Below, piece after piece: positions 136 to 53,668 of a DNA stretch of 53,727 bases. The notes under the pieces are model-generated. The model was not told the DNA's origin. It made no database searches and worked only from the letters and a program-made list of their open reading frames with translations. A program made the position numbers and the translations under genes. The stretch is from an uncultured Candidatus Saccharibacteria bacterium. Lineage in GTDB: Bacteria; Patescibacteriota; Minisyncoccia; Minisyncoccales; CSSED10-335. Each line of letters opens with the position of its first letter. The first letter of the stretch is position 1. The stretch spans positions 1-53,727 of the forward strand of contig CAZPFW010000002.1 of assembly GCA_964586065.1 (NCBI GenBank), given 5' to 3'.

Positions 136-990
136 TTAGTCTATCTTTTCAGATAGATATTTGTCTTTTGTTTGAGCGTAGAGGGTTTGTACTTCATAGG
201 CTGTTAGGGCTCTCGAATAGATGCGGACGTCGTCGATGAGGCCGTTGAAGAAATAGCTTCCCGTACTGTAAGTTCCTATCATGGCTTCCGCTGCTCCAAA
301 CCCGTCAAAAGTACTCTTAACGCTCTTCATGTCTCCTCCGTTAATATAACTTCTGTAGGTTTCTCCATCATAACTTCCGACAAAATGATACCATCTGTCC
401 GTTTCAATATCTGTATGAATCAGATAAGCTTGAGATCCTCCTGATTTTGCATACATTAATTTAGCTTGACTAAGATCGCCTACAAGAAGAGATGCTCCTG
501 TATTGGCGCTGGGAGATCCAGTAGCCTTGTGAAAAGTGATTATTCTATTTGGATAAACACTATCGTCTATCTGACTCGCATTAAACCAACCCGAAAGAGT
601 CCAAACATTATCTGAAAGAATAGAGTTTGACGGACCAAGTCTGATATAATGGTTTCCTTTACTCACATCCATCGCCTTACCCCCAGTCCCAGGAACACCA
701 TCCACTCTAGTAGCTCCAACGATAGTTCCGTTGTTCCCATAACCCGAGAGGTCGTTAGCTACACTTCCCGACCCTTCATCAAAGTTCCACCAACCTACTA
801 AGTCAGCTCCCAAGAGATTGTGCATGTTTGATTGAAAGGAGAGAGCGTTGGATATCTTGGCTTGTTCTCTGGCTCCTGTCAGATTGGAGAAGACTATGCT
901 GGCTAAAAGGGCTAAGACTGCTACTACAACTAAAAGCTCTATTAGTGTGAAGGCAGATTGTTTTCTTGAATCATTAAATAGATTAATCAT
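136..990 (-). CDS. Type IV pilin-like N-terminus + LamG (concanavalin A-like) domain protein, copy 1
   Basis: SA|FTLIELLVVVAV prepilin-type helix; LamG motifs GWWNFDE and FNGLIDDVRIYSRALT. Confidence 0.9.
   Translation of the reverse strand: MINLFNDSRKQSAFTLIELLVVVAVLALLASIVFSNLTGAREQAKISNALSFQSNMHNLLGADLVGWWNFDEGSGSVANDLSGYGNNGTIVGATRVDGVPGTGGKAMDVSKGNHYIRLGPSNSILSDNVWTLSGWFNASQIDDSVYPNRIITFHKATGSPSANTGASLLVGDLSQAKLMYAKSGGSQAYLIHTDIETDRWYHFVGSYDGETYRSYINGGDMKSVKSTFDGFGAAEAMIGTYSTGSYFFNGLIDDVRIYSRALTAYEVQTLYAQTKDKYLSEKID
161..249. repeat. 3' constant block of the pilin-LamG family
   Basis: 89 bp identical to 21261-21349; 87-bp match at 18829-18915 to the same junction; overlapping matches in the 19.6 kb and 20.4 kb junctions. 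Confidence 0.95.
777..963. repeat. 5' constant block of the pilin-LamG family (leader type A)
   Basis: 187 bp with 2 mismatches versus 21910-22096. Confidence 0.95.
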
Positions 991-992
991 TA

Positions 993-1970
993 TTATCTTC
1001 TTATAATTTCAACTTTCACTTTCTTGTATTTCTCGCCTTTTTTGATAAGTCCGTTTTTAGCTCCCCATTCTCTCAAGCATCTGGCTGAGTTGGCTGTTGC
1101 AAATTGAATCGCTTCTTGGGTTGTCTTTCCTAAGATTATAGATGAAGCAAATCCTGCTCCGTAAGAATCCCCCGCACCGGTCCTATCCACAACTTTTGAT
1201 TCTATAATCCCAGCTTTGTATATGAAATCTTTATCGGAAACAATTGACCCGTCGGGACCTTTAGTCATTACAAAAGTTCCTAAATAGTTATCTGTTATCT
1301 TTTTTAAAAGTTTCTCTTCTTTCATATAATCGACTCCTGACAATATGGAAGATTCTTCTTCATTCAGTATTAAAATATCAGTCTTTGATAATATCTCGTT
1401 CAATTTTTTGGAAGGGATCTTCAGTTGATCTTTTCCAAGATTAACCGCCACCTTTACTCCCTTTTTCTTGGCAAAGTCAACAATCTCTTCAAAAAAAGGA
1501 ACGGCCCTACCTGATAAAGGAGCGATGTAAAACCATTTGGTTTGAGGCATCTCTTTTAACAGTTTCTTAATCGGAAGATGCTCTGCCGCATCCCGATAAG
1601 CGAGAACTGTCCGATCTTTCCCAGCTGCACTCATGATGACTGAAAAGTTTGTCACCCTCTCTTTGATCCTGTAAATTAGAGAGATGTCCGATCGCATCTT
1701 TTTAATTTCGTTGATCACAACTTCTCCTATTGGATCGGATCCGACAGATCCGCAATAGATCGCTTTCAATCCTTGGGCCAGAAAAGTAGCCAAAGCATTA
1801 GTACCTCCCCCGCCAGTGAAAAATCTCACCTCGTCAATCTCAATCTTTGATCCCAAAGGTGAACAAATTTCTTCGCCGGTTGGAGAGCTTCCTTCTTCCC
1901 TGAAACGAAACTCGTCATCTCGGACAAATATATCCCAAGAAGCTGATCCGAAAGTTACAACATCAAGCAT
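993..1970 (-). CDS. PfkB-family carbohydrate kinase
   Basis: GGGGTNA N-terminal motif and DRTGAGDSY PfkB signature. Confidence 0.9.
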   Translation of the reverse strand: MLDVVTFGSASWDIFVRDDEFRFREEGSSPTGEEICSPLGSKIEIDEVRFFTGGGGTNALATFLAQGLKAIYCGSVGSDPIGEVVINEIKKMRSDISLIYRIKERVTNFSVIMSAAGKDRTVLAYRDAAEHLPIKKLLKEMPQTKWFYIAPLSGRAVPFFEEIVDFAKKKGVKVAVNLGKDQLKIPSKKLNEILSKTDILILNEEESSILSGVDYMKEEKLLKKITDNYLGTFVMTKGPDGSIVSDKDFIYKAGIIESKVVDRTGAGDSYGAGFASSIILGKTTQEAIQFATANSARCLREWGAKNGLIKKGEKYKKVKVEIIRR

Positions 1971-52798: not shown

Positions 52799-52867
52799 GT
52801 TAAGAATTGATTGTAGCAAAAAAGTTCAATAATTTAAAGAGATTCTTTTGGACTAAAAGAAAGAGCT

Positions 52868-53668
52868 TCAATTCTTTGTATAGTCAAAAGATCCTTGAGC
52901 GTAAAGAGCTTTGATCTCAAAAGCCGTAAGAGCTCGAGAGTAGAGACGAATGTCGCCGATATCTCCGTTAAACCTGTAAGATGATCCGTGCCCCCCTATC
53001 CAAGCAACGGTTTTCAATATTTCAGTGCTGTTGGATCCCGACATCACCATCTCTCCATTGAGAAAAAACCTGATGGATCCGCCCAAATCTCGACTCAAAG
53101 CTACGTGACTGAAGATGTCCAATTCAACCTCTTGCCCCGATCGCAGAACATCTCCGATTCTGTTTGCGAGTTTTCCATCAGATACCGAAAAATGAAATCT
53201 TCCCGAATCACCGGACTCGTATTGGTCGAATATGAAAAGGTAAGAACTAACAGAATGTGGCTTAATCCAAGCCGACACGGTAAAAGAATCGCTTCCCTCT
53301 AAGATACCGTTTGTAAGACGAATTCCGTCTTGGCTTCTGTTAAAACTCATCGCCTTACCGCTTGTCCCAGGCACTCCGTCCACTAAAGTAGGACAAGATG
53401 TACAACTTCCATTGTTACCGTAGCCTGATAAGTCTTTGTATCTGTTGTCTTCATCATCAAAGTTCCACCAACCTACTAAGTCAGCTCCCAAGAGATTGTG
53501 CATGTTTGATTGAAAGGAGAGAGCGTTGGATATCTTGGCTTGTTCTCTGGCTCCTGTCAGATTGGAGAAGACTATGCTGGCTAAAAGGGCTAAGACTGCT
53601 GCTACTACAAGTAGTTCTACAAGGGTGAAGGCTTTGGAAAAGTGTGGTCTTTTTCGATCAATTCTCAT
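52868..53668 (-). CDS. Pilin-like + LamG protein, copy 7 (ATG 53668)
   Basis: Type B leader nearly identical to copies 2 and 4; diverged 3' end (GDIRLYSRALT). Confidence 0.9.
   Translation of the reverse strand: MRIDRKRPHFSKAFTLVELLVVAAVLALLASIVFSNLTGAREQAKISNALSFQSNMHNLLGADLVGWWNFDDEDNRYKDLSGYGNNGSCTSCPTLVDGVPGTSGKAMSFNRSQDGIRLTNGILEGSDSFTVSAWIKPHSVSSYLFIFDQYESGDSGRFHFSVSDGKLANRIGDVLRSGQEVELDIFSHVALSRDLGGSIRFFLNGEMVMSGSNSTEILKTVAWIGGHGSSYRFNGDIGDIRLYSRALTAFEIKALYAQGSFDYTKN
53454..53636. repeat. 5' constant block (leader type B) of copy 7
   Basis: 183 bp with 1 mismatch versus 19413-19595, 34 kb away. Confidence 0.95.

Follow-up and report, generated by a model that had tools for sequence, protein, structure and literature searches.

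How can the genes of one family retain almost the same nucleotide sequence at their ends while their middles encode widely divergent protein segments? The question is raised by a stretch of 53,727 nucleotides (nt) from an uncultured Candidatus Saccharibacteria bacterium (contig CAZPFW010000002.1 of GenBank assembly GCA_964586065.1; GTDB order Minisyncoccales), referred to below as the window, and by its pilin-LamG genes, which encode a type IV pilin-like N-terminal helix fused to a LamG domain. A first-pass annotation, made from the letters of the window, had described seven such genes and proposed that lectin-like cores are swapped among them between homogenised flanks. The reading favoured here, held with considerable though not full confidence, is that these genes belong to a modular type IV pilin-like multigene family in which the ends undergo concerted evolution and the cores are reassorted at the conserved blocks. 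All data used for comparison are public metagenome assemblies (JGI, ENA and NCBI); L numbers denote contigs and P numbers denote protein clusters.

Constant ends and divergent cores of the pilin-LamG genes

The window contains seven pilin-LamG open reading frames (ORFs), all on the (-) strand and each with the A|FTL(V/I)ELLVV motif. All seven proteins match both N_methyl (PF07963; 25-33 bits, cut-off 21.2 bits) and Laminin_G_3 (PF13385; 51-85 bits, cut-off 27.6 bits) above the Pfam gathering cut-offs, in agreement with the earlier gene count, and a looser motif scan revealed no other pilin-like genes in the window. Close homologues are annotated in the source databases as 'LamG domain-containing protein' of Minisyncoccales bacterium.

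Four of the genes form a head-to-tail tandem array in the order c5-c4-c3-c2, in which successive genes are joined by ATGA stop/start overlaps and are translationally coupled. The array begins with c5 (21239..22123; 294 aa; own leader MFSALKTKEKQSA|FTL), continues with the array-internal c4 (20418..21242; 274 aa), which was chosen for the structure model, and c3 (19606..20421; 271 aa), and ends with c2 (18803..19609; 268 aa), which has the terminal-type tail KGNYLVEDI. The other three genes stand apart: c1 (136..990; 284 aa; own leader MINLFNDSRKQSA|FTL) comes after PfkB and ends in a terminal-type tail, whereas c6 (23978..24868; 296 aa) and c7 (52868..53671; 267 aa; own leader) are solo. The c1 gene was recovered also in L012-L014, and an eighth gene, c0 (295 aa; L012 10973-11860), lies 117 nt downstream of c1, just outside window position 1 and followed by Fer4, L25 and SLT genes; the window edge thus splits a c1-c0 pair. 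Each of the eight is a full-length gene that has a start codon and a leader, as had been noted for the seven, so that at least eight pilin-lectin fusions are found within ~64 kb of a 0.59-Mb genome. Predicted promoter and terminator sites in 17600-25900 were no more numerous than in shuffled sequence, and operon boundaries are therefore deduced from the gene overlaps alone.

Near-identity of the gene ends is evident at both sides of the cores. A 59-nt 5' block is exact in 6 of 7 copies, with one mismatch in c7, and a 70-nt 3' block is exact in c1-c5; the chance expectation is zero for each. The pairwise figures given previously for the 5' ends hold in ungapped comparisons from the Ala-Phe codons, with one mismatch in ~180 nt for c2 and c7 and two mismatches before ~nt 180 for c1 and c5, while c5 and c6 are identical up to a first mismatch at nt 105 from the Phe codon and also in the upstream leader bases. 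The earlier account needs correction in that the shared part of the 5' block ends after 86 nt in c3 and after 105 nt in c6. The first 27 nt of the helix occur in two versions, one in c1, c5 and c6 and the other in c0, c2, c3, c4 and c7. In c1 the 5' block is at 778..954 on the (-) strand and codes for the alpha-1 helix and first strand (AFTL...WWNF); in c2-c7 it starts with the Phe codon at 19588, 20400, 21221, 22084, 24835 and 53629, respectively, and runs downward on the plus-strand scale.

The 3' block of c1, located by repeat family and exact-block search, is at 146..255 (-), and its equivalents in c2-c5 are at 18810-18919, 19613-19722, 20425-20534 and 21246-21355 (-). It is not homogenised in c6 and c7, which lack it at the nucleotide level, the proportion of differing synonymous sites (pS) there being 0.78-0.90. 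As the ATGA overlaps join the genes, the repeated unit in the tandem array is a junction of ~300 nt consisting of 3' block, overlap and 5' block. A repeat finder run on the window returned such a 300-nt junction family (D1), with members on the (-) strand at c3/c2 (19362..19661), c4/c3 (20174..20473) and c5/c4 (20995..21294), together with a 110-nt 3' family; these constant-block families were the only repeats found in the window that touch pilin genes. Between WWNF and DDVRIY, the cores of the copies are only 19-38% identical in amino-acid sequence.

Concerted evolution of the ends and exchange of the cores

Several comparisons bear on how the ends are kept alike. Among c0, c1, c2, c4, c5 and c7 of the window genome, the 5' block has a pS of 0.00-0.20, whereas between this genome and L095 or L096 it is 0.57-0.98 at a proportion of differing nonsynonymous sites (pN) of 0.10-0.15. 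For the 3' block (22 codons, alignment anchored on the DDVRIY motif), pS is 0.00 among c0-c5 and 0.73-0.82 between genomes. The arrays of other species keep the same protein block (within-array pN about 0.01-0.06) with more synonymous divergence: over the 57-codon 5' block, the within-array median pS is 0.44 at pN 0.02 in L111, a seven-gene array of another species, and 0.50-0.67 in the L096, L095 and L112 arrays. The protein block itself is so conserved that one 30-residue N-terminal string is common to 51 of 120 cluster representatives.

The cores follow a different history. The c3 core is 86% identical to that of L095_a and 70% identical to that of L096_d, but only 21-26% identical to those of its own neighbours in the array, whose flanks match those of c3 exactly. 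Likewise, orthologues of the c1 core (65-71%) and of the c7 core (59%) in other lineages bear the flank of the other lineage. The flanks therefore group by genome and the cores by type, a pattern characteristic of concerted evolution. Since core orthologues are 59-86% identical in lineages with synonymously saturated flanks, the cores predate the flanks. Of the earlier description of the cores, the divergence stands but the variability does not: the cores are old, discrete, conserved types that evolve slowly, and not hypervariable segments. In the sampled data, at least ~27 distinct LamG core types occur with the flank of the window lineage. Orthology of c6 with L095_b, hinted at by a common HGxSPxCG motif, was ruled out, the two cores being 24% identical.

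The ends of the homogenised tracts are abrupt. In c3 the first 86 nt have no mismatch and the next 88 have 30 (Fisher p 1e-10), and the sequence beyond nt 86 is that of its orthologues in other genomes; in c6, 0 mismatches in 105 nt are followed by 25 in 69 (Fisher p 4e-12). Synonymous identity within the genome, saturation between genomes and sharp tract ends agree with the proposal that the flanks are homogenised by recombination, and the identity of the ends is due to gene conversion and not to protein-level selection.

Traces of conversion are seen also in the alleles of related strains. L006_a, the c1 orthologue of a strain ~1.5% divergent from the window in the genes beside c1, has a patch of ~45 nt with the c4 sequence just after the WWNFD codons, and its tail is array-internal, not terminal. 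Among cluster members, the c3 allele P0129 has its 5' block converted throughout, and in the c4 allele P0003 half of the block is of c3 type. In L008, all 24 differences in c5 are confined to the core (nt 264-774), and the constant blocks are unchanged; c6 of the same contig is a divergent allele (8.75% nt), and the c6 core has an amino-acid identity of 91.6% to that of the window in each of L008, L097 and L106. As an observation on the same region, the MgsA/RarA gene of L008 and L009 is 3-4% divergent while the adjoining c2 and c3 are identical.

Replacement of whole cores is best documented at the c0 locus. In L012, L013 and L014 the c0 core lies between c1 and the Fer4/L25 genes, and in L113 and L100, which come from different projects, the unrelated P0030 core is found beside the same Fer4/L25 genes. 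In L113, c1 upstream is 100% identical to that of the window and the genes downstream are 97.9% identical; between them, identity falls to background ~173 nt past the Phe codon and is regained 110 nt ahead of the stop. Breakpoints at the block edges, together with cores that occur with several leaders and tails, bear out the view that the flanks serve as exchange sites. The P0030 core was found with three different leaders across JGI, ENA and NCBI assemblies, and the P0019 core in three leader/tail combinations, one of them in the c2 position beside MgsA (single contig L098). The c3 core exists also in a 286-aa form whose leader is its own and whose terminal tail is that of c2 type (contigs of 45.6 and 38.4 kb), the c8 core has either terminal or array-internal tails, and the c4 core occurs with a c5 leader in P0143, which reads as a deletion of c5.

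Gene content varies as well. L103 has a c7 orthologue with an array-internal leader and an extra pilin-LamG gene upstream; at one tRNA-synthetase locus, L095 has two genes and L096 at least five; and a single metagenome-assembled genome (MAG) contains two versions of the c1 locus (L006 and L014) that differ in array content. At the syntenic PfkB locus of a more distant relative (PPDK 79% identical in amino acids), the first gene has a different core. Taken together, these sequence comparisons show that the identical ends are crossover points where cores, leaders and tails are exchanged among related strains; the traces would fit exchange within one genome and exchange between strains alike.

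Side observations concern a second, larger pilin island in the relatives L099, L108 and L109 (~95-99% identity), which contains five pilin-LamG genes, a 210-aa gene, a P0019 gene and c8, and also a pilin fused to Fib_succ_major (PF09603) and a YDG-domain protein. Such an island is probably present in the window's genome too, outside the window.

Predicted proteins and weighing of explanations

The structure of c4 was modelled by AlphaFold2 from a 91-sequence alignment (mean pLDDT 80.6). The model consists of a helix at residues 10-57, the long alpha-1 helix typical of type IV pilins, followed by a strand (58-63), a beta-sandwich with its last strand at 240-249 and a helix at 255-270. According to this model, the 5' block would correspond to the assembly helix and first strand, the 3' block to the last strand and C-terminal helix, and the core to the remaining sandwich. 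The best Foldseek matches of the c4 sandwich are lectin-like jelly rolls (E 1e-11 to 1e-9), including 5hon (AbnA domain 4; E 1e-11), the tetanus and botulinum toxin Hc domains and the trans-sialidase lectin domain. All seven proteins of the window have a class III signal motif, that is, a charged leader followed by A|FTL(V/I)E with Glu at mature position 5.

In the proposed mechanism, each protein would comprise a short charged leader, the Ala|Phe-Thr-Leu-x-Glu class III signal and an alpha-1 helix of ~48 residues running straight into a LamG/ConA-like beta-sandwich, which ends in its last strand and a short C-terminal helix. The ~175 nt coding for the helix and first strand and the ~90-110 nt coding for the last strand and C-terminal helix are kept near-identical among paralogues by repeated intragenomic gene conversion or unequal crossing-over, with conversion tracts stopping where the ~0.5-kb cores become too divergent to pair. 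Reassortment among related strains comprises core replacement at a fixed locus, new combinations of leaders and tails, and gene gain or loss in tandem arrays. The process may be ordinary RecA-type homologous recombination and not a dedicated switch, with partners in the same genome and/or in DNA taken up from related strains; recA was found in the relative L095. Identical alpha-1 helices would allow all paralogues to fit the same pilus machinery, and the variable LamG surfaces would together recognise a range of host or surface glycans.

Type IV pilus genes are reported to be general in the Patescibacteria phylum, and type IV pili act in attachment of its cultivated members (PMC11623550, PMC9763046). 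On account of this role in attachment and of the LamG fold, the genes would most likely supply a set of exchangeable subunits, of the pilus or its tip, that differ in their binding surfaces.

Several points weigh against this picture of a reassorting pilus-subunit family. In the predicted c4 structure there is no pilin head: the helix joins the LamG sandwich directly, without a four-stranded pilin sheet, and incorporation into a filament is for that reason an assumption. The predicted cleavage site has Ala at position -1 (KA|FTL or SA|FTL), not the canonical Gly, in all copies and in the relatives examined. A Pfam search of the ORFs found no pilus machinery genes in the window, including PilD, PilB and PilC. 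The adhesin role, with host or glycan binding, is deduced from the predicted fold alone. As to exchange, several strains ~2-3% apart in the region keep the order c6, c5, c4, c3, c2, and exchange is therefore not frequent on that timescale. Finally, repeats of 100-300 nt are places where assemblers can break or join wrong paths, so that junctions seen on single contigs, namely the P0019 core beside MgsA in L098 and c5 followed by c8 in L002, may be chimeric.

If assembly were at fault throughout, the blocks would be a collapsed-repeat consensus, the outcome named beforehand as fatal to the recombination proposal, and the variant junctions would be chimeric contigs; this is considered quite improbable. 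The repeats do disturb assembly: L001, L004 and L005 terminate at them, the L098 and L002 junctions are each known from one contig only, and the 589,514-bp ENA scaffold that contains the window sequence (NODE_9; contig L007) has runs of ten N at L007 8199-8208 and 9897-9906, exactly at the c5/c4 and c3/c2 junctions, with the flanking bases duplicated. In this scaffold the repeats were therefore not crossed by short reads, gene order was kept by pairing, and the proteins called at the gaps (295 aa; genes without overlap) are scaffolding artefacts. As a practical warning, pilin-LamG loci break or mis-join short-read assemblies. The same gene order and blocks, however, are found in independent assemblies from other samples (L001, L003, L008-L011 and L012-L014), the locus re-assembles elsewhere at 99.6-100% identity, and single-base differences specific to each copy are preserved inside the blocks. 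L008 spans c6 to c2 and differs from the window by substitutions and by indels typical of long-read assembly, including two A-homopolymer length errors. In addition, several variants recur in separate JGI, ENA and NCBI assemblies, and the contrast in synonymous divergence within and between genomes cannot come from collapse.

The other explanations accept the sequences as they are. Purifying selection on the pilin helix, mRNA structure or translation signals might in principle keep the ends identical without recombination, in line with the extreme conservation of the protein block (the 30-residue string and the low pN of other arrays); yet this protein block is encoded with pS values of 0.44-0.98 within and between other genomes, the c3 and c6 tract boundaries are abrupt, and strain alleles differ by whole patches copied from paralogues, which leaves this explanation hardly credible. 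Tandem copies with identical ends and very divergent middles would also be expected if the genes had duplicated recently and their cores had then diverged under very fast diversifying selection or by targeted hypermutation, for example by a diversity-generating retroelement (DGR). This too is extremely improbable, as the core types with 59-86% orthologues are older than their synonymously saturated flanks and as cores differ between strains by 0-4%, just like neighbouring genes, with the exception of one c6 allele (8.75% nt). No reverse transcriptase was found among the window ORFs and no template repeat in the window; a DGR target was accordingly rejected, the RVT_3 match at 38862-39302 being an RNase H-type domain.

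Less easily dismissed, but still unlikely, is programmed antigenic or phase variation of the pilE/pilS type, with frequent rewriting of a single expressed locus from donor copies in a clonal population. The Neisseria system consists of one expressed pilE locus and truncated pilS copies without promoters, and it is started by a G-quadruplex (G4) motif. The pilin-LamG genes resemble this system in that conserved segments flank variable ones and would be used in RecA-type gene conversion, and the two c1-locus versions in one MAG could be taken for a switch. The two versions, however, differ by ~1.5% in flanking housekeeping genes as well, which indicates two strains and not a switch, and core order is stable across several strains. 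Every copy is complete with leader and start codon, four are translationally coupled, and neither silent pilS-like copies, a single expressed locus nor a G4 is present among the pilin-LamG genes of the window: no silent, promoterless 5'-truncated cassette exists among the eight full-length copies, and no G3+ four-tract motif occurs on either strand of the whole window. A G4-driven pilE/pilS model was rejected on these grounds, and a shufflon was rejected since no inverted repeats of >=30 nt were found in the window and no recombinase domain in any window ORF of >=100 aa. The earlier comparison with a programmed switch finds no indication here, while the statement that the copies are in direct orientation and lack a site-specific recombinase in the window is upheld.

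Relation to known systems and genomic setting

Among known pilin families, the adhesion pilins PilA1-6 of Haloferax volcanii share an identical hydrophobic N-terminal domain and have divergent C-terminal parts. Like them, the pilin-LamG proteins are paralogues with an identical N-terminal assembly helix; unlike them, they are bacterial and have a LamG module and a common 3' block. The mechanism of the modular family is closest to that of the bab family of Helicobacter pylori, whose babA, babB and babC genes have N- and C-terminal homology regions and a type-specific middle and undergo inter-locus gene conversion that yields chimeras (PMC4552749). As in bab, full-length paralogues reside at separate loci with strain-variable occupancy (PMC4552749). 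The ends of the pilin-LamG genes are more alike within a genome than orthologue ends are between genomes, and their middles follow orthology; chimeric alleles and strain-variable locus occupancy are seen at the c0 locus, in the leader/core/tail combinations and in L006. Bab proteins differ in being outer-membrane beta-barrel adhesins encoded at three loci only, and bab genes show phase variation at CT repeats, of which no equivalent was identified in the pilin-LamG genes (PMC4552749). The pilin-LamG family has at least eight copies per genome and at least ~27 core types, is partly in tandem and resides in a 0.6-Mb genome of episymbiont type.

In protein architecture, the closest analogue is PilC of Streptococcus sanguinis, a modular type IV minor pilin whose ConA-like lectin module was shown to bind glycans (PMC9934059). 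Both combine a class III signal peptide and pilin N-terminus with a module of the ConA/LamG superfamily; PilC, however, is a single-copy protein of 52.8 kDa in which a short pilin moiety is followed by an Ig-like module and then by the lectin module (PMC9934059), whereas the predicted helix of the pilin-LamG proteins joins LamG directly, without a pilin head, and the genes form a large recombining family. In the same bacterial class, methanogen-attached Paceibacteria likewise have clusters of several genes with pilin signal peptides, proposed by the authors to serve in host attachment; the passages on pilin and pili in that study mention no LamG module, nucleotide-identical ends or recombination (PMC9763046). 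No description of the family was found in literature searches on pilins with LamG in Patescibacteria and on pilin gene conversion in the Candidate Phyla Radiation. A profile search of genome contigs with the protein alignment returned mostly pilins of Planctomycetota and Verrucomicrobiota, dominated by the generic AFTLIELLV, and no close relatives.

The system is of interest because host recognition and attachment in Patescibacteria, very few of which are cultured, are largely unknown, and the pilin-LamG family is a concrete candidate for a determinant of host specificity: one assembly helix with at least ~27 types of interchangeable lectin-like heads, for whose reassortment among strains at defined breakpoints there is direct sequence evidence. 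Hypotheses on host range thereby become testable with existing metagenomes and recombinant LamG domains, and the family is a clean bacterial case of concerted evolution restricted to gene ends. A further, tentative idea, which we regard as possible but rather doubtful, is that the cores form a population-wide pool of cassettes for host recognition, the blocks acting as portable homology arms and the hand of cores setting the hosts. If so, any LamG core from a related cell or from another locus could enter any pilin locus, and the adhesins of each ~0.6-Mb genome would be a different draw out of dozens of types.

The genes around the array include two neighbours of possible relevance. A gene for a 438-aa protein (22145..23461, (-) strand) lies 21 nt upstream of c5 and is kept beside c5 in L001, L007 and L008; it may be co-transcribed with c5, although it is uncertain whether it is part of the pilin-LamG system. 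Its product has an N-terminal membrane anchor and a weakly matching FGE-sulfatase/C-type-lectin-like C-terminus ending in GFRCVK. This fold is a common DGR target, and no reverse transcriptase or template repeat that could serve it was found in the window. Directly downstream of the array, on the (-) strand at 17658-18791, is the gene for MgsA/RarA, a recombination-associated AAA+ ATPase, whose position beside the array is probably coincidental.

All but one of the ORFs of >=100 aa with Pfam matches are on the (-) strand. Apart from the pilin-LamG genes, the window holds housekeeping functions, with genes for PPDK, GAPDH, enolase, PGK, iPGM, FtsZ, SecA, SecDF, LepA, MurJ and a release factor (RF). 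In the SecD homologue (46370-48043, (-) strand), the periplasmic region contains an inserted rotamase domain, a peptidyl-prolyl isomerase of PPIC type. Encoded at 41566-44481 (-) is a TrwB/TraG-like coupling ATPase of type IV secretion that has a treble-clef zinc finger and adjoins a 440-aa protein without a Pfam match; a type IV secretion system of Patescibacteria has been described (PMC12102498). A gene for a MjaI-type restriction enzyme (28941-29540) adjoins a gene for an N6/N4 methylase-SNase protein (29580-30866), and the related strain L097 lacks window positions 28893-30499, which cover the MjaI-type gene and most of the methylase-SNase gene, so that this restriction-modification pair is a strain-variable insertion or deletion. 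RNA genes comprise a class A RNase P RNA (37823-38188, (-) strand; 117 bits) and tRNA-Gln(CTG), tRNA-Thr(CGT) and tRNA-Gly(CCC) (31015-31086, 33843-33994). GC skew is negative in every 2-kb window, and the genes lie nearly all on the (-) strand.

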